This document shows, piece after piece, positions 49,763 to 59,320 of a DNA stretch of 64,000 nucleotides (positions within the stretch are counted from its first letter, which is position 1; each line of letters opens with the position of its first letter). The translations under genes and the position numbers were made by a program. This DNA comes from Polyangiales bacterium (GTDB taxonomy: Bacteria > Myxococcota_A > Polyangia > Polyangiales > Polyangiaceae), in contig JBBRLQ010000036.1 in assembly GCA_038231275.1 (NCBI GenBank), forward strand, positions 8,301-72,300, read 5' to 3'. The notes beneath the pieces were generated by a model. That model ran no database searches, was not told the origin of the DNA, and was given only the letters and a program-made list of their open reading frames with translations.

Positions 49763-51040
49763 TCATACGCCGAGGAGCTTGCGCGCGCGCGCCGGATCGG
49801 CAGGCGTGCGGCCGATGCTCCGCGCGTAGGCGGCGGCCCTGGCAACGAGGGGCGCGCTCCCTTCGGAGAGGACGCCCTTGGTCAGGTAGATGTTGTCCTC
49901 GAGGCCGACGCGCGCGTGGCCGCCCATGCGCATCGCGAGCTCGGTGAGCGGCATCTGGTGACGCCCGACCGCGGCGACGCCCCAGGTCGCTCCCTCGGGA
50001 AGGAGCGAGCGCATGTACCGAACGTTGGCCTCCGTGGCGCCGATGCCGCCCGCGATGCCCATCACGAACTGGAAGTGCAGCGGCTCGGAGATCGCGCCCT
50101 CCTTGAGCAGCGCGAGCGCCTCCTCGACGTGGCCGATCTCGTAGCACTCGAGCTCGGCGATCGTGCCGGACTTGCGGATGCGCGCGGCAAGATCGCGGAT
50201 CTGCGGGCGCGTGTTGACGAAGACGTCGTCGCCGAAGTTGATGGTGCCGCAGTTGAGCGTCGCCATCTCCGGCTTGCAGAGGAGAGGCTGGGCGCGCTCG
50301 TCGATCGACATGCCGACGGCGCCGCCGGTCGAGGTCTGCACGATCACGTCGGTCTTCTTGCGGATCGCGACGATCGCCTCCTCGAAGCGCTCGCGCGATT
50401 GGGTGGGCGAGCCGTCGGGGTTGCGGACGTGGAGGTGGATGACCGCGACGCCCGCCTCGCGGCAGCGCGCGGCCTCGTCGGCGATCTCTTGCGCGGTGAT
50501 CGGAAGGTGCGGCGTCTGCGCGCGCGTGACCTCGGCGCCCACGATCGCAGCGGTGAGGATGACGTCCGGCGCGAGCGGAGGGGTGACGATCGAGGCGGTC
50601 TCCGGCGCGGGACCGGCGGGGAGCGCTGGCATGTACAGCTCCTTGTGGCGGCGCTGGAGCGGCTTCGGCGTCACGCAAGTCCCGGTGGCGCGGCACACCA
50701 CGATCGGCTCGGCCAGCACGTCGGCCGCGCTCGCCGGCATCCCCGGTTGGCGGACGCCGGTGACGACCTTGCGCGCCTCGAACCGCATCTGACGGCTGGT
50801 GTTCCCGACGCCGGTGAGCTCGGCGGTCGCCTCGATGTAGTCGCCTGCGAAGACCGGCGCGAGGAAGTCGACGGTGTCGTACGCGCGGAACAGACCCTCG
50901 TCCCCGTCGAGGCGAATGAGCAGCTCCGTCGCGAGATCGCCGAACAGCGCGAGCATGCGCGCGCCATCGACCAGCTCCCCGGCGTAGTGCGCGTCGTGCG
51001 CGGACATGCGGAGACGAAGAGTGACCCTGAGCCCGATCAT
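49763..51040 (-). CDS. kal-kce: Fusion of 3-aminobutyryl-CoA ammonia-lyase (Kal, hot-dog) and 3-keto-5-aminohexanoate cleavage enzyme (Kce/BKACE)
   Basis: N-terminus [37 protein letters not shown]-terminus [33 protein letters not shown]. Confidence 0.9.
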
Positions 51041-51076: not shown

Positions 51077-52747
51077 TCACCTTGGGCAGTCGTCGGGGAC
51101 GGTGTCGCCGCCGTTTCCATGCACGCCGGTGAGGAGCCACACGGGGCCTTTCGTCCCCGGCGAATACCCGTAAATCACCTGGTATCCATCGTCATGGACC
51201 GTCGCGCGCGCCACGACGGCACTGAGGCTGCACCGGGGCGGTCCGAGCCGAGGTGGCGAGTCCTGAGGTTCGTTGACGAGGACGCGGAGGACTCGCGCCG
51301 ACGCGATGACGAAGATCGAAATGGGCTTTCCCGCTTGGGTTCCGAAGAAGCGATAGCGGACCTCGGTGCCTCCCGGCATGACGCCGACGTCGACCGTGCC
51401 GTCGGAGCGCGCGGGCGTCGCCATCAACGAGACGAGCACGGCGTCCGGCGCGATCTTCCGCGCCTGCGCCTCCGCGGTTGGGAGATAGCCGGAGACGTCG
51501 AACGCGGCCGCGCCCACTACGGGCTCCTCCGACGGTCGATCGAGGCTCGCGACCGCGTGCCCGCGACGCATCGCCGCGCGACCGAGGAGCAGTGGCACGG
51601 CGACCGCGAGGAGCACCGTGAGGACAGCGAACGCGACGATCGCGACGCCGCGCGCCTGCGACGGGGCCACCGCTGCCGGCGGAGGGCTGGTGGCCGCCGG
51701 CGCGGACGAAAACGACGCCGACGACAAGGTGCTGAGGTTCGCGCCTGGCGGGAGCGGAAGGAGCGGCGGGTCCGTGGGCAGCGGCACGGGGACCGTCGAA
51801 GGCACCGGCTCCTCGGTCCGCTCGATCTCCAGAAGCGCCCGCTCCAACTCCGCGGCCATCGCGCTCGCGCTCGGGAAGCGCGCGTCCGGCTCCTTCGCCA
51901 TCGCGCGCAGGACCACGCGCTCGACGCTCGCCGGGACCTTCGGCGCGAACGTCCGCAGGCCCGGCGCCGGCGTCTCGACGTGCGCGCGCAGCAGATCGAA
52001 CGTCGAATCGAAGGCGAACGGCAACCGACCCGTCAGCGCCTCGAAGAGCACCACGCCGAGCGAGTACACGTCCGCGCGCGCGTCGATGTCGCGCGCCTCG
52101 CGCACCTGCTCCGGCGCCAGGTACGCAGGCGTCCCCAGCATCGCACCCGCGCGCGTCGGGCCGGTCCCGGGCGGCGCCGACAGCAACTTGGCAATGCCGA
52201 AATCCAGCACCTTTGCGTGGCCGCCTGGCGTGACGAAGATGTTCTCTGGCTTGAGATCGCGGTGCACGACCCCCTTGTCGTGCGCCGCCGAGAGCGCCGC
52301 GAGCACCTCCAACGCGAGCGCGCCGACCTCACGCAGCGGCAACGCGCCGCGCGCCGCGATCAGCGTGGACAAGGACGACCCCTCGAGGTGCTCCATGACG
52401 ATGCACGGCGGGCCGCTGGGCAGGACGAGCATGTCGAGGACGTTGACGATGTTCTCGTGGCGTATGAGGTTCACGACGCGCGCCTCGGCGAAGAAGCGCT
52501 CGAGCTCGACGAGATCGCGCGCGCGGTCCTCGGCGAGCACCTTGATCGCGACGCGCGCGCCGATGTTCGGCTGCACCGCTCGGTACACCCGCCCCATCCC
52601 GCCTTGTCCGATCCGCGAAGCGATGCGGTAGCTCCCCACCGTCTCGCCGAGGAGCGGATCGTCGGACTCCGCGAGGCGATGACCATCGCGTGTGCAGCTG
52701 CCGCTGGCGGGCGCCGATTCACCGCACTCCGGACAGACCCACCGCAC
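51077..52747 (-). CDS. Transmembrane Ser/Thr kinase with N-terminal zinc ribbon
   Basis: CPEC..CTRD; GQGGMGRVY, HRDLKPEN, DFG, APE; TM. Confidence 0.93.
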   Translation of the reverse strand: MRWVCPECGESAPASGSCTRDGHRLAESDDPLLGETVGSYRIASRIGQGGMGRVYRAVQPNIGARVAIKVLAEDRARDLVELERFFAEARVVNLIRHENIVNVLDMLVLPSGPPCIVMEHLEGSSLSTLIAARGALPLREVGALALEVLAALSAAHDKGVVHRDLKPENIFVTPGGHAKVLDFGIAKLLSAPPGTGPTRAGAMLGTPAYLAPEQVREARDIDARADVYSLGVVLFEALTGRLPFAFDSTFDLLRAHVETPAPGLRTFAPKVPASVERVVLRAMAKEPDARFPSASAMAAELERALLEIERTEEPVPSTVPVPLPTDPPLLPLPPGANLSTLSSASFSSAPAATSPPPAAVAPSQARGVAIVAFAVLTVLLAVAVPLLLGRAAMRRGHAVASLDRPSEEPVVGAAAFDVSGYLPTAEAQARKIAPDAVLVSLMATPARSDGTVDVGVMPGGTEVRYRFFGTQAGKPISIFVIASARVLRVLVNEPQDSPPRLGPPRCSLSAVVARATVHDDGYQVIYGYSPGTKGPVWLLTGVHGNGGDTVPDDCPR

Positions 52748-52836: not shown

Positions 52837-53361
52837 CTACGGGTTCTGGAGCGGCGCGGCGCGAACGCACGCGGCGGTGTCGGTCTTTCCGGCGAGCCAC
52901 GAGACGAGGCAGGTGTCGCGATCGTCGCCGACCGCCATGAGGCTTCCTCCCTTGTGATCCTCCTGACCGCGCCCTTTTCGGATGAGCGTGAGGCGCTCCG
53001 GCGCCGCGCCACGTTGCGATACGACCTGGCTCATGATCTCCGGCTCGAGCCCCACCACGGACTGGTAGTCCTGCTCGATCTCCGCTTGCGTCGTCGCGTA
53101 ACCGGGGAGGAGGTTCGGCGACGCGTCTTTCTCGAAGCGCAGGCCTTCACTGCCGTAAAGGCGCAGGTTGCGGAACGTCGTTCCGTGGCAGTCGAGGGTG
53201 CCGCATCGATCGACGAGCATCTTGGCGACCGGCTCGAACGTCGCGCGATCCGGCACGGTCTCGACGAAGCGCCCATCCGTCGCAGGCGTGGAGCACGCGG
53301 CGATGACGCCGAACGGCGCTCCGAAGACCAGCGCGAGCAAGAGAGAGCGTCGGGCGCTCAC
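52837..53361 (-). CDS. Lipoprotein with atypical CX4CH putative heme motif
   Basis: Lipobox IAAC; FEPVAKMLVDRCGTLDCHG; distal HKGG. Confidence 0.7.
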   Translation of the reverse strand: MSARRSLLLALVFGAPFGVIAACSTPATDGRFVETVPDRATFEPVAKMLVDRCGTLDCHGTTFRNLRLYGSEGLRFEKDASPNLLPGYATTQAEIEQDYQSVVGLEPEIMSQVVSQRGAAPERLTLIRKGRGQEDHKGGSLMAVGDDRDTCLVSWLAGKTDTAACVRAAPLQNP

Positions 53362-53870
53362 GGCACACCTCCGTCACCCCAGCCGACGGCGACCGGCCCG
53401 GGCGAGCTCGGCCCCGCCGGATTGAAGTGACACCCGGCGCACGAACCGTCGCGGCCGATGTGCGATTTCATCGTGGTCGTCACGCCGCCGTAATCGACCT
53501 CGACTGTGATCGGATACGCCGGCGTCCACTCGTTCGGGGTCACGTAGAAGTTGCCGACGTCGTTCGTCGTCGCCGCGTGAGAGGCTCCAGTCGCGTCGGT
53601 CATCTTGACGATGGCGCCGCCCGCGCCGTTCTCGGGCGCGATCACGTAGGGCGTGACGAAGACGGTTCCCGCGACGTTGAATTGAGGCGGATCGCCGATT
53701 TTGCCGTCGTGGCAGAGGAGGCACGGCTGTCCGGGGCGATGGGTCGGGCCGGTGCCCACTCCCGACGCCTCGCCGCCGAGCGCGTCGACCTCGTTCGAAT
53801 GAACCGGATCGCACGCGAGAGCGCCGAGCGCCATCGACGCCGACGCGACCAGGAGCGCGGCGCGTTTCAT
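53358..53870 (-). CDS. Di-heme c-type cytochrome lipoprotein (two CxxCH flanking an Ig/prealbumin-like domain)
   Basis: MKRAALL..LAC; H.PGQPCLLCH; AGTVF..TTNDVGNF; SCAGCH. Confidence 0.8.
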   Translation of the reverse strand: MKRAALLVASASMALGALACDPVHSNEVDALGGEASGVGTGPTHRPGQPCLLCHDGKIGDPPQFNVAGTVFVTPYVIAPENGAGGAIVKMTDATGASHAATTNDVGNFYVTPNEWTPAYPITVEVDYGGVTTTMKSHIGRDGSCAGCHFNPAGPSSPGPVAVGWGDGGVP

Positions 53871-55111
53871 AGCTGAACCTCCAGCGTGAACGCGCCGATG
53901 CCGGAGACCCGGTGCGTGAGGTAGATGTCGTCGAGGTACTGCGTCGTCGTCACGTTGAGGTCGAGTCCCAGGATGAACGTGTCGGGGTGCTCGCTGGCGC
54001 CGACCTTCCAGCGGAAGCTCCCTCCCCCGGTGCCGCTCCACAGCGGGCCGAGCTCGCGATCGCCAGTTCTGAGCGCAGGGAAATCGAAGCCCGGCTGCAT
54101 CACGTAGGCGCGCTGCCAGAAGTTGACGGCCTTCTGCACGTGGAAGCGCAAGTGCGGGCCCATCTCCACGCGGCGGCTCACGTCGATCGGAGCGCGGAAA
54201 TCCGTGGTGCTCGCGATCATCGCCCACGAATCCGCGTAGACGCGCTGGTCCCCGCGCAGCGTGAGCGGATCCATGCGGTGCGCGATTCGACCGCTGAGCG
54301 CGAAGCGGTCGCGCGTGAGAGGCAGCTGCTCGAGGGGGCGCGCGGAGAGGCGAAGCTGCGCGACCTGCTCGGGAGGCGCGCCGCGCGCGACCTCGGTCCC
54401 TGGCGCGAAGATGGGGACGTAGCGGTAAGGCTTCGAAGGATCGCCGCGCTCGAAGATCGTGTCGAGGACGACCGACGCTACGGTGACGCGGTCGACGAGG
54501 AAGGTCGCCCCCAGCTTGAACGCGTGGCGATCGAGCTGCCGATTGAAGAGCGACCACGCGGTACCGGTTCGCCCGGCGATGTCGTGCCCGAACGCGTAGC
54601 CGCCGAGGAGCGTCACGCGCTTGTCGAAGAGATCCTTCACGACCGCCGCGCTCCCCGTGACGGAGAGGTAGTCCGGCTCGCTCGAGACGTTCACTCCCGC
54701 GCGAGCACCGAACGTGTCCGGCTTGTATTCCACGTCCGCCGAGCCGACGTGGCGGATCTCCTCCCACCGTCGCGACGCCGTCGACACGATGTCCACCGAC
54801 GCCGCCGACACGACGTCCACGAGGTAGCGGCCGTTCAACGTCCAGCCGGCGGTCGGGTTCACGATGCTCGCGGCGATCGTCGGCGTCACGACGAACACGT
54901 GATCGGTGTCCGCATAGGCGGCCGCTTCGCTCGAGGCGCGCACGTCGATCGCGCGGGCCGGTGGAGGAGGCGGCGCAGGGGCGTCGGCGGGCTTTTCTTC
55001 GGGCGGCGCGTACACCTCGGTAGGTGGAGCCTCCTCGGCGCGCGCGACCTCAGCAACCGCGAGGATGAGCGCGACGGTCGCCGCGCTCGAGGCTCGACGG
55101 CTCAATTGCAT
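53867..55111 (-). CDS. DUF3570-family outer-membrane beta-barrel protein
   Basis: Signal peptide ending ARA; YLVDVVSAASVDIVSTAS, SSEPDYLS, PYRYV, EQLP..RDR, RVYADSW; follows DUF4266 gene. Confidence 0.8.
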   Translation of the reverse strand: MQLSRRASSAATVALILAVAEVARAEEAPPTEVYAPPEEKPADAPAPPPPPARAIDVRASSEAAAYADTDHVFVVTPTIAASIVNPTAGWTLNGRYLVDVVSAASVDIVSTASRRWEEIRHVGSADVEYKPDTFGARAGVNVSSEPDYLSVTGSAAVVKDLFDKRVTLLGGYAFGHDIAGRTGTAWSLFNRQLDRHAFKLGATFLVDRVTVASVVLDTIFERGDPSKPYRYVPIFAPGTEVARGAPPEQVAQLRLSARPLEQLPLTRDRFALSGRIAHRMDPLTLRGDQRVYADSWAMIASTTDFRAPIDVSRRVEMGPHLRFHVQKAVNFWQRAYVMQPGFDFPALRTGDRELGPLWSGTGGGSFRWKVGASEHPDTFILGLDLNVTTTQYLDDIYLTHRVSGIGAFTLEVQL

Positions 55112-55317
55112 CCACATCCACCGCCCGCGGAGAGCCCTCCGCCGATCGCGCCTTCGTGCACGGCGCGCACGTGCTCTTCGCCGACGCCACCCATGTCCGA
55201 CATCGTCATCGTCGGATGCGCCAGCGCCCCGCGCTCGTACGGCGCCACGCGCGCGCACGCCGCAGACGAGAGCGAGAGCGCGAGGGCGGTGGCGAAGACG
55301 ATCGAGGCGCGGGTCAT
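55102..55317 (-). CDS. DUF4266-family small lipoprotein
   Basis: AAC.RVAPYERGALA...M..., EH....HEGA.GG, ends GGGCGCN. Confidence 0.88.
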   Translation of the reverse strand: MTRASIVFATALALSLSSAACARVAPYERGALAHPTMTMSDMGGVGEEHVRAVHEGAIGGGLSAGGGCGCN

Positions 55318-55351
55318 GGGTCGAGGCTCCTAGGCAGGACGCTCAAACGGC

Positions 55352-55795
55352 TCAAACGGCGAGTCGCGTAGCGGCGTCGACTTGCTGGCCGCCGTGGACG
55401 GTGACGTTCCCCGCCGTGTCGGCGCTCACGGCGAAGTGAACGAGCGGCGCGGTCGCAGGTCCGGCGGTGACGGCGCCGTTCACGTCGAACGTGCTCCCGT
55501 GGCAGGCGCACGAGATCCCTGCCGGCGACACGGTACCATGCTCGGCGATGTCGCATGCCTGGTGCGTGCACGTCAGCGTCATCGCGTAGATCCCTCTGGC
55601 GTCGCGACCGATCGCCGCGGAGACGCCCGCGACGATCCGCAACGACCCGACCGGCAAGGCGGCCACGGTGCCTCCGGACACGTCGCCGAACGCTTCGGGT
55701 CCCGCGCCCGAGCTCGAGCATGCCGACATCGCGCGCGGTAGCGCGGCCGTCGCGACGAGCACCTGCAAGAAATGACGGCGGGGGAGGCATTCCAT
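55352..55795 (-). CDS. Tat-exported Rieske [2Fe-2S] lipoprotein
   Basis: PRRHFL Tat motif; AMSAC lipobox; CTHQAC and CACHGSTF; GPA..PL. Confidence 0.9.
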   Translation of the reverse strand: MECLPRRHFLQVLVATAALPRAMSACSSSGAGPEAFGDVSGGTVAALPVGSLRIVAGVSAAIGRDARGIYAMTLTCTHQACDIAEHGTVSPAGISCACHGSTFDVNGAVTAGPATAPLVHFAVSADTAGNVTVHGGQQVDAATRLAV

Positions 55796-55888: not shown

Positions 55889-56476
55889 TTACGGGCAGGC
55901 CGCGGCGCCGGGGCGAAGATGTGGCGCTTCGCTGCGGATCGCGCCGCATTCATCGTCGCACGAGGTCGGTCCCACGCCTCCGCATTTGGCGAGGAGCTCG
56001 CCGCCAGGCGCAGGAGCTGGACAGCTTGGCGGAAGCATCACGCAGACGCCCGGCGGATCGGGATCATGCGGGCACCGATCCGTCGACGGGAAGACGCGCG
56101 CGCAGGACGCGCCGGCGACGGGACACGGCCCGCTGCCGCCGCCGCACGTCGCCGCGCCGGGGCCGCAATAGCCGAGCGCGCTCGCGGTGACGCCCGCTTG
56201 CTTGCGCAGGCAGTCGTTCCAGTAGGTGACGCCGTCGCAGCCGCAGGTGAGCAGCTGGGTCGTGTCGCACGAAACGGGGCGCGCCTCGCAGTGGCCGGTG
56301 GGTTGATCGCACGTGTCACGAACGCAGAAGCCCTCGTGACAGTCGTCGTCGTTGACGCACCGATGGTCGGAGTCTCCGCCGACGTGGTGCGCGGGGAGGG
56401 TGGCGACGACGATGTCCGTGGACGAGCAGCCGACGGCGCTCGCGAGGATCGCGGTGAGGAGCAGCGCGCGGCTCAC
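55889..56476 (-). CDS. Cys-rich lipoprotein (Kazal-like CGCDGVTYWNDC module)
   Basis: Lipobox AVGC; dense Cys; GTG overlaps upstream TGA. Confidence 0.8.
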   Translation of the reverse strand: MSRALLLTAILASAVGCSSTDIVVATLPAHHVGGDSDHRCVNDDDCHEGFCVRDTCDQPTGHCEARPVSCDTTQLLTCGCDGVTYWNDCLRKQAGVTASALGYCGPGAATCGGGSGPCPVAGASCARVFPSTDRCPHDPDPPGVCVMLPPSCPAPAPGGELLAKCGGVGPTSCDDECGAIRSEAPHLRPGAAACP

Positions 56477-57612
56477 GGCGGCGTCGCTCCGCGCGCGTAG
56501 GGGACGGAGCCCGCGAGGTTGAACGTGAAGCCGACGAGCAGCGCAGGACGCACGCGCCACGGCGTGAAGAGCGGCTCGGCTTGCGTGCCTTCGAGCACGA
56601 CGAAGCGGTGGGGCGAGAGATCCACGTCGGCCGAGAACGCGACGAGGAGATCGGCGCTCGGCCCCACCGCGAAGTGCGCCGCGACGATCGCACCGAGGAC
56701 GGGCGACGCGTCGGTGCTCTCCGCGCCGAGGCGCCGATCGGGCAGGCTCGTCGAGTTGGCGCGCGGCGTCGACCACATGACGTCGAAGCCTCCTTCGGGG
56801 CCGGCTTCGACGAGCCATCTCTCGCCTCCGAAGAGCCGGATCGTAGGAGCGAGGCGCAGCGTAGCAGCCTTCGCGTGCACGTCGACGAGGCGACCGCGGA
56901 CGTCGAACGCAACGTGGTACGTGCCGATGAGCCACAGCGCAGGCCGCCACGCGCTCCGGCCCAGCGCGGCGCCGACCAGCCCTCCGCCGCCGACGATCGT
57001 CTCGGCGCCCGATCCGAACGCGCGGCCGGCGAAGAACGCGCCGCCGTCGAGACCGAATCGGGATTCTTCGCGTGCGACGCGCGGAGGTTCGGCGCGCGCG
57101 GGGTCCGCGCGAGGCGGAGGCGGCGGAGCAGGAGGGGGTGGACGGCGCCCTTGCTCTGCGAGCTCTTCGACGGACGATTGGATGATGTGCGCCAGCTCCT
57201 CGACGACGATCGCGGTAGAGCGGTCGCGCTCGACGCTGCGGCGCGCGACGACGCGCCCGGTGCGGCCATCGACGATCGCCATCGATGCGCGCGAGCCGCG
57301 GAGATCGACCCACGCGGTGGCGAGCTCGCCGGCGGCGCCGCCGGAGAGATCGGGCGCGTCCAGATCGATGCGCTCGGCGCGGCTCGCCTCGACGGTCATC
57401 TCGAGGCGCGCGAGGAGCTCGCGGACCGAGGCCTCGAGCGATGTCGCCGCCTCGGCGTCCTCGCCCGCGATGACGAGGCGCAGGACGCGGCGAGGGGCAG
57501 GCTCGGCCTCGGCCGGCGCGGCGACGTCGGCGAGCGCGCGCGAAGTGAACAAGCAGGGGGCGATCGCAGCGAGCGCCCCGGCGAGGAGCGCGCCGCGCCG
57601 GGCGGCGTTCAC
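56473..57612 (-). CDS. Secreted protein with probable C-terminal beta-barrel
   Basis: Signal peptide ending ALA; Pro linker; amphipathic beta strands; translationally coupled on both sides. Confidence 0.7.
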   Translation of the reverse strand: MNAARRGALLAGALAAIAPCLFTSRALADVAAPAEAEPAPRRVLRLVIAGEDAEAATSLEASVRELLARLEMTVEASRAERIDLDAPDLSGGAAGELATAWVDLRGSRASMAIVDGRTGRVVARRSVERDRSTAIVVEELAHIIQSSVEELAEQGRRPPPPAPPPPPRADPARAEPPRVAREESRFGLDGGAFFAGRAFGSGAETIVGGGGLVGAALGRSAWRPALWLIGTYHVAFDVRGRLVDVHAKAATLRLAPTIRLFGGERWLVEAGPEGGFDVMWSTPRANSTSLPDRRLGAESTDASPVLGAIVAAHFAVGPSADLLVAFSADVDLSPHRFVVLEGTQAEPLFTPWRVRPALLVGFTFNLAGSVPYARGATPP

Positions 57613-58679
57613 CGATGTCCGAGCTCCTCGAGCCTCGCGTGGGCGCGCGCGGCGTGGATCGACTGCGGGTAGCCCTTGAGGAGCGCGGACCACGCCGCGC
57701 GCTCGTCCGCGGGACGACCGAGCCGCTCGAGCGCGCGCGCCCGTCCGACCATTGCCTCCTCGCGCAACGCGGGATCGCCGCTGCGAAGGTAGGTCTCGAA
57801 GAGCGGGAGCGCCGCCGCCGCGTCGCCGTCGTCGAGCAGGAGACGCGCGAGCGCCGCGCGGGTCGCGCTCGCCTCGGCCGCGTCGGAGTGCCGGTCCAAC
57901 AGATCGCGGTAGAGCGCGGTCGCGCGTGCGTGCTCGCCCTGGCGACGCGCGGAGTTCGCCTGGGAGAAGAGCACCGCCGCGCCGCTGGGCTCGGGCGGCC
58001 GCGGCGGCTCGGGCGTGAGGGCCACGACCGGTACGATCGCCGCCGGCGCGCGCGGCGCAGCGCTCGCCGCCAGGATCGGCGCTCCCGTTTGCGCGGGCGC
58101 GGTCCTGACGATCGCAGAGGTCGACGCGGTCACGGGCGGCTCCGGCTCCGGGACCGGCGCGGCGGCGGTCGCCACCCGCGGCGAAGGCGCACCCACTGTT
58201 GCCGCGTTGTCCTTCGGAGCTGCCGGAGGCGGCGCTGCCGGAACCGTCGTGAGCGGCGTCGACGCCGACTCGGGCGCCAGCAGCGACCACACGCCGGTCA
58301 CGCGCGCGGCTCCCGCGACGCCCGCGAGCATGAGCGCGGCGGCGACCAGCACCGCCACCCGCACGCGATGACGCGACCGCGCCTGCACGCTCGGCCGCAG
58401 CGCAGGGATCGGCGCGGGCTCCTCCAAAGGCTCCGGCGGCGGCGGCGGCTCGGTCTCTTCGAGCACGCGCGACACGACGCGCGACATGATGAGCGAGCCG
58501 TCGTGAACGGGGGAGTCCGCGGCCATCTCGTCGGCGAAATCGACGCGGACGTCGCGCTCCAGTCGACAGGCCGCGCAGTGCGCGAGGTGCGCGTCGAGCA
58601 TCGCGCGCTCCTTCGGAGTGAGCGAGCCTCGCGCCTCGCGATCGAGCAGGTCCTCCGGATGGAGATCGGCGACGCTCAT
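57609..58679 (-). CDS. Anti-sigma factor: zf-HC2 (ZAS) + TM + Pro linker + TPR
   Basis: H...HLAHCAAC; TM VAVLVAAALMLAGVAGAA; TPR helices ending YPQS. Confidence 0.85.
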   Translation of the reverse strand: MSVADLHPEDLLDREARGSLTPKERAMLDAHLAHCAACRLERDVRVDFADEMAADSPVHDGSLIMSRVVSRVLEETEPPPPPEPLEEPAPIPALRPSVQARSRHRVRVAVLVAAALMLAGVAGAARVTGVWSLLAPESASTPLTTVPAAPPPAAPKDNAATVGAPSPRVATAAAPVPEPEPPVTASTSAIVRTAPAQTGAPILAASAAPRAPAAIVPVVALTPEPPRPPEPSGAAVLFSQANSARRQGEHARATALYRDLLDRHSDAAEASATRAALARLLLDDGDAAAALPLFETYLRSGDPALREEAMVGRARALERLGRPADERAAWSALLKGYPQSIHAARAHARLEELGHR

Positions 58680-59320
58680 GATTCCCCCCCCAGCCCCAGC
58701 TCCTCAGCGAACGCGGGGTTCGCTTCGATGCGCTTCCGAAGCGCCTGCTTCGCGATGCGCAGCCGACTGCGAACGGTGTTCACCGGCGCGCGCGTGGCCT
58801 GCGCGATCTCGTCCAGCGACCATCCGAGGACGAAGCGCAGCGCCATCGACTCGGCCTGCTCGTCCGGGATGTCCGCCAAGAGCTCGCGGATGATCTCTTT
58901 GCGTCGCGTCGCGCGGGCCAGCTCCGACGGCAGCGGACGCGTCGAGACCAGCGTGTCGGCGTCGACGCCGTCGTCGCGTCGCGACTCGAGCGTGCGTGCG
59001 CGCTTTCGCGCTGCGACGGCCGTCCGCACGGCGATGCGCGAGCCGTACTGCACCGGCTCGCACTCTCCACGAAAGCTCGGGAGCGCCTGCACCAACGCGA
59101 TCAGCGACTGCTGCACCACGTCGTCCGCGTCGGCGTGCCCGCCACCGAGCACCGCGTGAACTACGCGTGTCATCCGCGGTGCGACCGCTTCCAACAGGCG
59201 CCGCGTCGCCGTCACGTCCCCCGCGGCGGCCGCCCGCGCGAGCTCGATCGCGGCGCTCGGCGGCCTTACCGGACCGGGAACGGGCATCTCGGATGGCGGG
59301 GTCGGGAGGTTCGCGGCCAT
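58676..59320 (-). CDS. ECF RNA polymerase sigma factor
   Basis: DADDVVQQ, FRGE, LRFVLGWSLDEIA, NTVRSRLR. Confidence 0.92.
   Translation of the reverse strand: MAANLPTPPSEMPVPGPVRPPSAAIELARAAAAGDVTATRRLLEAVAPRMTRVVHAVLGGGHADADDVVQQSLIALVQALPSFRGECEPVQYGSRIAVRTAVAARKRARTLESRRDDGVDADTLVSTRPLPSELARATRRKEIIRELLADIPDEQAESMALRFVLGWSLDEIAQATRAPVNTVRSRLRIAKQALRKRIEANPAFAEELGLGGES

Follow-up and report, generated by a model that had tools for sequence, protein, structure and literature searches.

A conserved DUF3570 gene cassette with two heme-motif lipoproteins in a Polyangiales bacterium

A four-gene cassette and a fifth, local gene

The stretch analysed here, hereafter the window, comprises 64,000 nucleotides (nt) of the genome of a Polyangiales bacterium (GenBank assembly GCA_038231275.1, contig JBBRLQ010000036.1, positions 8,301 to 72,300 of the forward strand), and the system in question is a run of five open reading frames at window positions 52837-55795, all on the minus strand, that encode in order a Rieske protein, a DUF4266 protein, a DUF3570 protein, a protein with two CxxCH motifs and a protein with a CX4CH motif. 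An earlier note on this DNA had described five co-oriented genes with the last four overlapping, and the reading frames bear this out. The first gene (55352..55795, minus strand, like every window feature given below) encodes a Rieske [2Fe-2S] lipoprotein of the twin-arginine translocation (Tat) type (PF00355, E 1e-11) and is accessory to the four core genes that follow. These encode a small DUF4266 lipoprotein of 71 residues (55102..55317; PF14086) whose Gly-rich tail ends in C-G-C-N, a DUF3570 protein (53867..55117; PF12094) that is predicted from an AlphaFold2 model to form a 16-strand outer-membrane β-barrel, a putative diheme c-type lipoprotein (53358..53870), identified by its two CxxCH motifs, their conservation and a model, and a putative monoheme lipoprotein (52837..53361), identified by its CX4CH motif and conservation. 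Within the DUF3570 gene, sequence and alignment reveal two tandem ApbE-type flavinylation-like motifs (54773..54817) without the canonical Gly. The three family names given in the earlier note are confirmed by Pfam, with 44.7 bits for the Rieske domain (cut-off 20.3), 48.5 bits for DUF4266 (cut-off 27) and 48.2 bits for DUF3570 (cut-off 25). A gap of 34 nt separates the end of the Rieske gene from DUF4266, after which DUF4266 and DUF3570 overlap by 16 nt (10 nt if DUF3570 starts at its second ATG, 55111, which is possible and matches the start of its homologues), DUF3570 and the diheme gene by 4 nt, and the diheme and CX4CH genes by 4 nt. A sigma-70 scan of the gene run returned no promoter and no internal terminator, the sigma-70 consensus being unsuited to this organism.

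The conserved unit is the four genes for DUF4266, DUF3570, the two-CxxCH lipoprotein and the CX4CH lipoprotein. Searched with a CX4CH-protein profile, 86 of 151 genomes at the family level gave matches (214 in all, 150 listed), and from the upper part of the listed matches we took 80 regions, excluding this genome, some loci retrieved separately and some second copies. These regions contain 82 CX4CH genes, 67 of which have 4.5 kb or more of sequence upstream. The diheme gene lies beside 81 of the 82, with DUF3570 near 77 and DUF4266 near 51; DUF2271 is near 12, TlpA near 7 and DsbD near 2, and ApbE was found within 8 kb of none. These counts are lower bounds, as the profiles are home-made and short contigs cut some loci. 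The loci found with the window diheme protein behave alike, with a CX4CH gene in 16 of 17, DUF3570 in 15 and a Rieske gene in none, several of them coincide with family regions, and the two sets cannot be added up. At the order level a DUF3570 profile matched 110 of 151 genomes (a tally that includes genome G123; 395 matches, 150 listed), and the 40 regions sampled carry DUF4266 in 35 cases, CX4CH in 23, the diheme gene in 8, DUF2271 in 8, TlpA in 6 and DsbD in 3, with ApbE and Rieske genes each at 0/40; a heme-motif gene (CxxCH or CX4CH) is present in 30 of these loci and absent from 10. Finally, the CX4CH profile matched 31 of 201 genomes of the phylum, and among 20 distant regions taken from 46 listed matches (19 of the 20 from outside the family) DUF3570 and DUF4266 are present in 18, ApbE in 9 and TlpA in 8, the Rieske and diheme genes each in none. 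Because these distant loci carry DUF3570, DUF4266, ApbE and TlpA, the CX4CH protein has long belonged to the ApbE/TlpA/DUF4266/DUF3570 cluster in Myxococcota, the phylum to which the relatives with named records belong (several are labelled Polyangiaceae). Across 60 aligned cassettes, the set also used for residue invariance below, pairwise distances of the barrel and of its partners correlate with Spearman coefficients of 0.54-0.72, which, kinship being shared, speaks for joint inheritance only.

This genome has five DUF3570 genes, four of which are directly followed by the diheme and CX4CH genes. The three paralogous cassettes lie on other contigs, at C5:39617-43265, C17:8834-12200 and C13:61080-64362; two have long N-terminal DUF3570 extensions resembling tetratricopeptide repeats (TPR), and the one on C17 has a CPHCH lipoprotein gene upstream, in the slot adjoining DUF4266. 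The fifth DUF3570 gene is paired with DUF4266 and accompanied by an SH3-domain protein (C22:25090-27848), and a lone DUF4266 gene (C16:194214-194360), without DUF3570, lies directly downstream of a multicopper-oxidase-like and TolC-like pair. What occupies the position adjoining DUF4266 differs among the other cassettes, which have DUF2271, TlpA, a mono- or triheme lipoprotein or an unrelated gene there. Six of the distant loci (L338, L340, L345, L346, L347 and L351) combine CX4CH, DUF4266, DUF3570 and ApbE with two heme-motif proteins of ~800-1000 residues.

The earlier note had also observed that ApbE and TlpA are absent from the window, and no gene resembling either is found among the window reading frames. 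Its further proposal, that Fe-S and heme carriers stand here instead of these proteins, does not hold. This genome encodes two ApbE proteins (one of them, on contig C58, with a lipoprotein-type N-terminus), one DsbD (on contig C18) and several TlpA-like proteins, all on other contigs, and ApbE is present in 84 of the 86 cassette genomes versus 35 of the 65 others, a comparison in which kin are not independent; the two cassette genomes without an ApbE match are 76% and 67% complete. At other loci TlpA, DsbD or ApbE genes occur beside heme lipoproteins, and in three (L016, L020 and L021) the full heme pair is flanked by both DsbD and TlpA. ApbE, DsbD and TlpA have thus not been replaced and are kept in trans.

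The Rieske gene and the upstream sigma-factor module

The window Rieske protein has the features that the earlier note had read in it, namely a Tat-like RRHFL motif, a lipobox Cys (C26) and the two boxes CTHQAC and CACH with their extra pair of disulfide Cys; residues C76, H78, C81, C96, C98 and H99 are invariant in 17 of 17 aligned sequences. In bc1 Rieske proteins a particular Tyr position has a role tied to high potential. The window protein has Phe at this position, which is Tyr in the high-potential bc1 proteins, and it scores far below the NCBIfam equivalog cut-offs for bc1/b6f Rieske proteins. It shares with the bc1/b6f type (closest PDB entries 9RK4 and 9RK3) both boxes with the disulfide Cys pair and the Tat-like signal, but unlike that type it is lipid-anchored, has neighbours that vary between genomes and is not accompanied by a cytochrome b gene, none being found within the gene run by Pfam scan.

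The Rieske gene is a local, non-conserved extra that lies outside the core cassette. Orthologues are present in 53 of 150 other family genomes, and neither DUF3570 nor DUF4266 is found at any of the 29 best orthologue loci within 1.5-kb flanks. In turn, none of the 82 family cassettes has a Rieske gene within 4 kb, two have one within 8 kb, and there is none at the three paralogous cassettes in this genome. The window barrel belongs to a 15-member clade (SH-aLRT, a likelihood-ratio branch support, of 100 in a quick tree), and no Rieske gene was seen at the locus of any other member. In a genome of the same genus, G395, the orthologous stretches flanking the site align at 74%, and a gap of 37 nt, without a Rieske gene, separates the end of the gene for a Cys-rich lipoprotein from DUF4266. 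A metagenome scan with the Rieske protein gave 80 loci, none with a cassette gene, although with L245 (55% identity) as the only close orthologue this is a weak test. Most likely the Rieske gene was inserted upstream of DUF4266 in this lineage, which is simpler than its loss elsewhere. Of the conserved five-gene set that the earlier note envisaged, the four-gene part is therefore upheld by the neighbourhood survey (diheme 81/82, DUF3570 77/82) and the Rieske part is not (0/82, 0/40, 0/20, 0/29 and G395).

These counts bear on a model in which the five proteins form an obligate chain, the Rieske cluster feeding thiol, flavin and hemes in place of ApbE and TlpA. The Rieske gene is indeed co-oriented and only 34 nt upstream of DUF4266, and its product is exported and lipid-anchored; yet with no Rieske gene within 4 kb at any of the 82 family, 40 order-level or 20 distant loci, none at the orthologous G395 locus or the three paralogous cassettes, and ApbE, DsbD and TlpA all kept in trans, an obligate arrangement is largely refuted and we give this chain hardly any credence. 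Since the slot adjoining DUF4266 holds varied genes in other cassettes, the Rieske protein may still be a functional recruit at this locus, not a core component.

Mixed redox neighbourhoods were also seen apart from DUF3570. In two distant Myxococcota (L083, G220:C4:739000-742000, and L089, G200:C7:72000-75200) the diheme domain and a Tat Rieske protein cluster with a DUF5777 barrel, joined in L089 by DUF2231, which shows such carriers to be mixed among barrels; a full-text literature search for DUF5777 found nothing. Elsewhere, a Rieske orthologue is accompanied at L111:2-1968 by a diheme-domain gene and by one for a protein without a Pfam family that bears an N-terminal CAQCH, and at L103 and L106 by a CSLCH protein that ends in an Arg-rich tail.

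Upstream of the Rieske gene, after a gap of 93 nt, lie four overlapping, co-oriented genes of an extracytoplasmic function (ECF) sigma-factor module. The one nearest to the cassette, the last of the module, encodes a Cys-rich lipoprotein (55889..56476) whose G395 orthologue matches Kazal_1 above the cut-off; it is preceded by the genes for an exported protein of 379 residues without a Pfam or NCBIfam family (56473..57612), an anti-sigma-like protein with zf-HC2, a transmembrane segment and TPR (57609..58679; Pfam) and, at the head of the run, an ECF sigma factor (58676..59320; Pfam Sigma70_r2, r4_2 and Sigma70_ECF), these three being kept in place in G395. On the other side, 89 nt downstream of the CX4CH gene, lies a gene for a membrane Ser/Thr kinase (51077-52747) whose position is not kept in G395, followed by a fusion of a hotdog-fold thioesterase and a beta-keto acid cleavage enzyme (49763-51040; PF03061 + PF05853). 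The cassette could be pictured as a sensor of the redox state of the envelope, with its output going to the neighbouring ECF sigma/anti-sigma pair or to a Ser/Thr kinase. Here and in G395 the module adjoins the cassette in the same orientation, an ECF module is close by in 6 of the 80 family regions, and a genome with four or five paralogous cassettes could use them for separate signals. However, random 10-kb windows of this genome would give ~5%, close to the 6/80 seen, and we consider a sensor quite improbable. ECF linkage was likewise rejected as a defining feature of the cassette. An ECF module is also near 3 of the 29 Rieske loci versus ~2% by chance, two of the three coming from one genus.

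Predicted cofactor sites on the barrel and its partners

The DUF4266 protein ends in GGGCGCN, as the earlier note had it, and its terminal GCGCN is invariant in all 60 aligned cassettes. The AlphaFold2 model of DUF3570 (predicted local distance difference test, pLDDT, 86.7) contains 16 long strands, in line with the barrel proposed earlier, and the protein is thus predicted to be an outer-membrane β-barrel. Its long loops follow strands 3, 7, 9 and 13 and, by ordinary outer-membrane topology, would face outward. The two flavinylation-like motifs, DVVSAAS (residues 101-107) and DIVSTAS (109-115), occupy the end of strand 3 and the flexible loop that follows, where the model is of low confidence (residues 106-115). 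D101, A106, S107, D109 and A114 are invariant in 60/60 cassettes, and position 115 is S or T in all 60.

Several lines of evidence bear on whether these motifs are used, those from the literature being cited here, as throughout, from excerpts of the papers. DUF3570 of Chlorobium luteolum is flavinylated at two Ser in an ApbE-dependent manner (PMC8238504). The same work reports gene clusters in which DUF3570 is joined by DUF4266, DsbD and a thioredoxin-like protein, and a DUF4266/DUF3570/TlpA neighbourhood is mentioned once in bioRxiv 10.1101/2023.06.07.544157. Replacement of the motif Gly by Ala leaves ~50% flavinylation in a fumarate reductase model substrate (PMC12052999). Moreover, among nine DUF3570 proteins that share their locus with apbE, six lack the Gly at both motifs (L338, L340, L341, L342, L345 and L346) and three at the second motif only. 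Because the C. luteolum protein is flavinylated, Gly-to-Ala keeps about half of the activity and Gly-less motifs share loci with apbE, the DUF3570 barrel likely carries covalent flavin mononucleotide (FMN). A comparable variation is seen in DUF2271 proteins encoded beside cassettes (L059, L142, L146, L150, L156, L161, L163, L171, L178 and L195), in which the Gly position of the ApbE motif is G, S, A or R, and this suggests a relaxed ApbE motif in Myxococcota.

A flavin on an outer loop would also be compatible with a redox-coupled uptake pore, in which the flavin reduces an Fe or Cu chelate that enters via the lumen and the hemes and the thiol recharge it from the periplasm. The loop with the motifs is predicted to face outward, a TonB-dependent receptor is encoded directly upstream of the barrel in one locus (L015), and 25 DUF3570 clusters are described with a VIT1 iron transporter in the excerpts of PMC8238504. 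On the other hand, no recurring metal transporter was seen in the neighbourhoods read through, no systematic scan having been made, and a heme-rich module would be a costly response to iron shortage; an uptake pore is in our view distinctly unlikely.

Neither of the two heme-motif lipoproteins of the window matches a Pfam or NCBIfam family above the cut-off. The motifs that the earlier note pointed out in them are nevertheless not due to chance, as their Cys and His residues are invariant in 60/60 cassettes, and the lipobox Cys was invariant in the first alignments of both. In the diheme protein, C50xxCH54 and C144xxCH148 flank a transthyretin-like/CnaB β-sandwich (model pLDDT 79.6; fold matches of Z 7-8, a common arrangement), and C50, C53, H54, C144, C147, H148, H44 and M134 are all invariant (60/60). 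His44 and Met134 are the predicted distal ligands, which would give one His/His and one His/Met heme; two stand-alone homologues have Met in place of His44, as expected for an axial ligand. Cytochrome_C7 is matched by 43 of 60 diheme homologues at E ≤ 0.05, with the window protein itself below the cut-offs.

The CX4CH protein has the motif C53-x4-C58-H59, and C53, C58, H59 and H136 are invariant in 60/60, making His136 a candidate distal ligand of what would be one His/His heme. A second Cys pair, C151 (invariant) and C165 (conserved at ≥90%), likely forms a disulfide. The family has 798 representatives at E ≤ 0.001 in a library at 50% identity. No homologue matches a cytochrome family, the 120 closest listed database matches have no Pfam domain and those with names are, but for one, hypothetical proteins. 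In the ESM Atlas it falls beside unnamed Myxococcota clusters, with one weak lead to PSCyt1 (0.91; the family is on 16% of members), and by sequence the profile gave no match among solved structures at E ≤ 10. CX4CH is listed among the known heme-binding motifs (PMC11492766). A profile comparison of the two heme lipoproteins yielded a probability of 45.6%, confined to the N-terminal part, and homology between them is not claimed.

The machinery for attaching heme to such a motif appears to be available. The CX4CH cytochromes of Desulfovibrio are matured by a Cys-type CcmE. This Cys-type motif is reported for Desulfovibrio desulfuricans (PMC9084895), and the present genome has a CcmE with a Cys-type motif, CPSKY, together with three PF01578 Cytochrom_C_asm genes and no match to ResB (the assembly is 94% complete). 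Two CcmE-like sequences are present (C1:504762-505328 and C18:124219-125025), the intact one with CPSKY and the second without a heme-binding motif. Judged by these sequence features, both heme-motif lipoproteins are likely c-type cytochromes, which would make three hemes in two small proteins.

A proposed relay, its alternatives and its relatives

Dithiols transfer electrons in pairs and hemes singly, with a flavin as the usual converter between them. As the cassette holds a dithiol, flavin sites on a barrel and hemes, and DsbD and TlpA recur nearby, we favour, tentatively and at a little less than an even chance, a low-flux relay from thiol to flavin to heme at the outer membrane, that is, a heme-bearing variant of the DUF3570 system and not a conduit of the MtrAB kind. 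In such a relay DsbD and TlpA, encoded in trans, would reduce the CGC dithiol of DUF4266, whose Gly-rich tail would reach into the barrel and pass two electrons to FMN on Ser107/Ser115. The FMN would split the electron pair into single electrons for the hemes, and these, at low flux, would reduce an acceptor in the envelope or at the surface, a metal chelate being the most plausible one. The Rieske protein would be at most an optional one-electron partner, in the slot filled elsewhere by DUF2271, TlpA or further cytochromes. That DUF4266 threads into the barrel is inferred, as are the face occupied by the cytochromes, the course taken by the electrons and their final acceptor.

A number of observations weigh against this relay. 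The strict motif D-x-x-[ST]-G-A-[ST] is not present in the barrel, Gly occurring in 2/60 first motifs (position 105) and 0/60 second motifs. No electron-acceptor or transporter gene is consistently linked to the cassette. At the phylum level the diheme domain was found in 48 of 201 genomes, and among 40 regions sampled around the best matches 30 have no DUF3570 (the top 10 lie in cassettes), so this domain does not need the DUF3570 barrel. The placement of the lipoproteins is a further point: Asp at lipoprotein position +2 is an inner-membrane signal in E. coli, and the window diheme lipoprotein has Asp there. Only 14/60 homologues share it, and the sorting signals described for lipoproteins of Myxococcus xanthus are Lys at +2 and Ala at +7, +2 Asp not being its rule in the excerpts of PMC3222651; we have not used this residue for placement.

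The structural neighbours of the barrel must also be counted here. Wide VIA-align searches with the AlphaFold2 barrel model and the diheme model returned as nearest solved folds of the barrel the polysaccharide export channels PelB (Z 20.0, root-mean-square deviation (rmsd) 4.5 over 270 residues), PgaA (Z 19.6) and BcsC (Z 19.1), and some DUF3570 paralogues carry N-terminal TPR-like extensions (hits below the cut-off), as PelB, PgaA and BcsC do, which fits export equally well. The barrel could then be an export or assembly channel that brings the co-encoded cytochrome lipoproteins to the surface, with the DUF4266 dithiol and any flavin serving maturation or gating and no net flow of electrons. 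That the partners of DUF3570 vary, yet are nearly always exported heme or redox proteins (a heme-motif gene lies in 30/40 order-level loci), agrees with such a role. The likeness to the Pel, Pga and Bcs channels (PelB-PelC, PgaA and BcsC; PDB 9H80, 4Y25 and 6TZK) goes as far as matches of Z 19-20, TPR-like extensions on some paralogues and lipoprotein partners. In contrast to those systems, identities are 7-11%, the gene run holds no glycosyltransferase or deacetylase gene and every partner bears redox motifs. Likeness among 16-strand barrels at 10-11% identity tells nothing of function, 10 of the 40 DUF3570 loci have no heme-motif gene, the diheme domain often occurs without DUF3570, and export alone can hardly account for two conserved flavin sites. 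We therefore regard an export channel as unlikely, if worth keeping in view, and retain the thiol-flavin-heme relay as the preferred reading.

The relay would differ from the porin-cytochrome conduits in several respects. MtrB has 26 strands. The DUF3570 barrel has 16 predicted strands and no MtrB_PioB Pfam match, and MtrB ranks only 33rd in the structural search (Z 14.2, rmsd 8.6), so the distinction from MtrAB drawn in the earlier note holds in barrel size. With MtrAB/MtrCAB of Shewanella (PDB 6R2Q) the cassette has in common an outer-membrane barrel encoded together with c-type cytochrome lipoproteins and a proposed transfer of electrons through the envelope; it differs in having no decaheme cytochrome, only three putative hemes in two small proteins, and FMN and a dithiol as the proposed cofactors of the pore. 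A closer relative is the DsbD-type flavinylation cluster, in which, in the excerpts of PMC8238504, adjacent DUF4266 and DUF3570, a C-terminal CXC and two tandem motifs, flavinylation-like in the cassette and with the acceptor Ser kept, are shared with it. ApbE, DsbD and TlpA-like proteins are likewise encoded in this genome, and TlpA, DsbD and DUF2271 recur beside related cassettes. The window cassette differs from those clusters in that it has no apbE and no thioredoxin gene within it, that the motif Gly is replaced, and that two heme lipoproteins are nearly fixed partners.

A bolder version of the relay would make the myxobacterial DUF3570 cassettes a third kind of trans-outer-membrane conduit, with a narrow 16-strand barrel in which, in place of a multiheme cytochrome, a threaded Cys-Gly-Cys peptide and two covalent FMNs on an outer loop carry electrons from periplasmic thiols to surface heme lipoproteins of two undescribed cytochrome families, and with a swappable input slot (DUF2271, TlpA, a cytochrome or, here, Rieske). 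We consider this doubtful, though not far-fetched.

The earlier note knew of no characterisation of this combination, and our search agrees. The excerpts of PMC8238504 name no heme partner for DUF3570 and do not call it a barrel, its main text contains neither "Rieske" nor "Myxococc", and the excerpts of PMC11334425 do not mention DUF3570. A full-text search, which reached few subscription journals and did not extend to the cluster table in the supplement of PMC8238504 (where myxobacterial clusters may appear unannotated), found no publication on heme partners of DUF3570 or on this cassette.

DUF3570 is a proven substrate of ApbE flavinylation for which, to our knowledge, no electron acceptor or role has been described, and we know of no extracellular electron transfer in these predators of soil and sediment. 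The cassette is a real, undescribed heme-bearing variant of this known but unexplained flavinylated envelope system. It names a testable acceptor for the DUF3570 flavin, in the form of two nearly fixed partners with every sequence feature of c-type cytochromes, and its marker gene, CX4CH, is present in 86 of the 151 genomes searched at the family level, frequently in multiple copies. Should the relay cross the outer membrane, it would be a conduit of thiol and flavin, unlike the porin-cytochrome wires, in abundant predators of soil and sediment.

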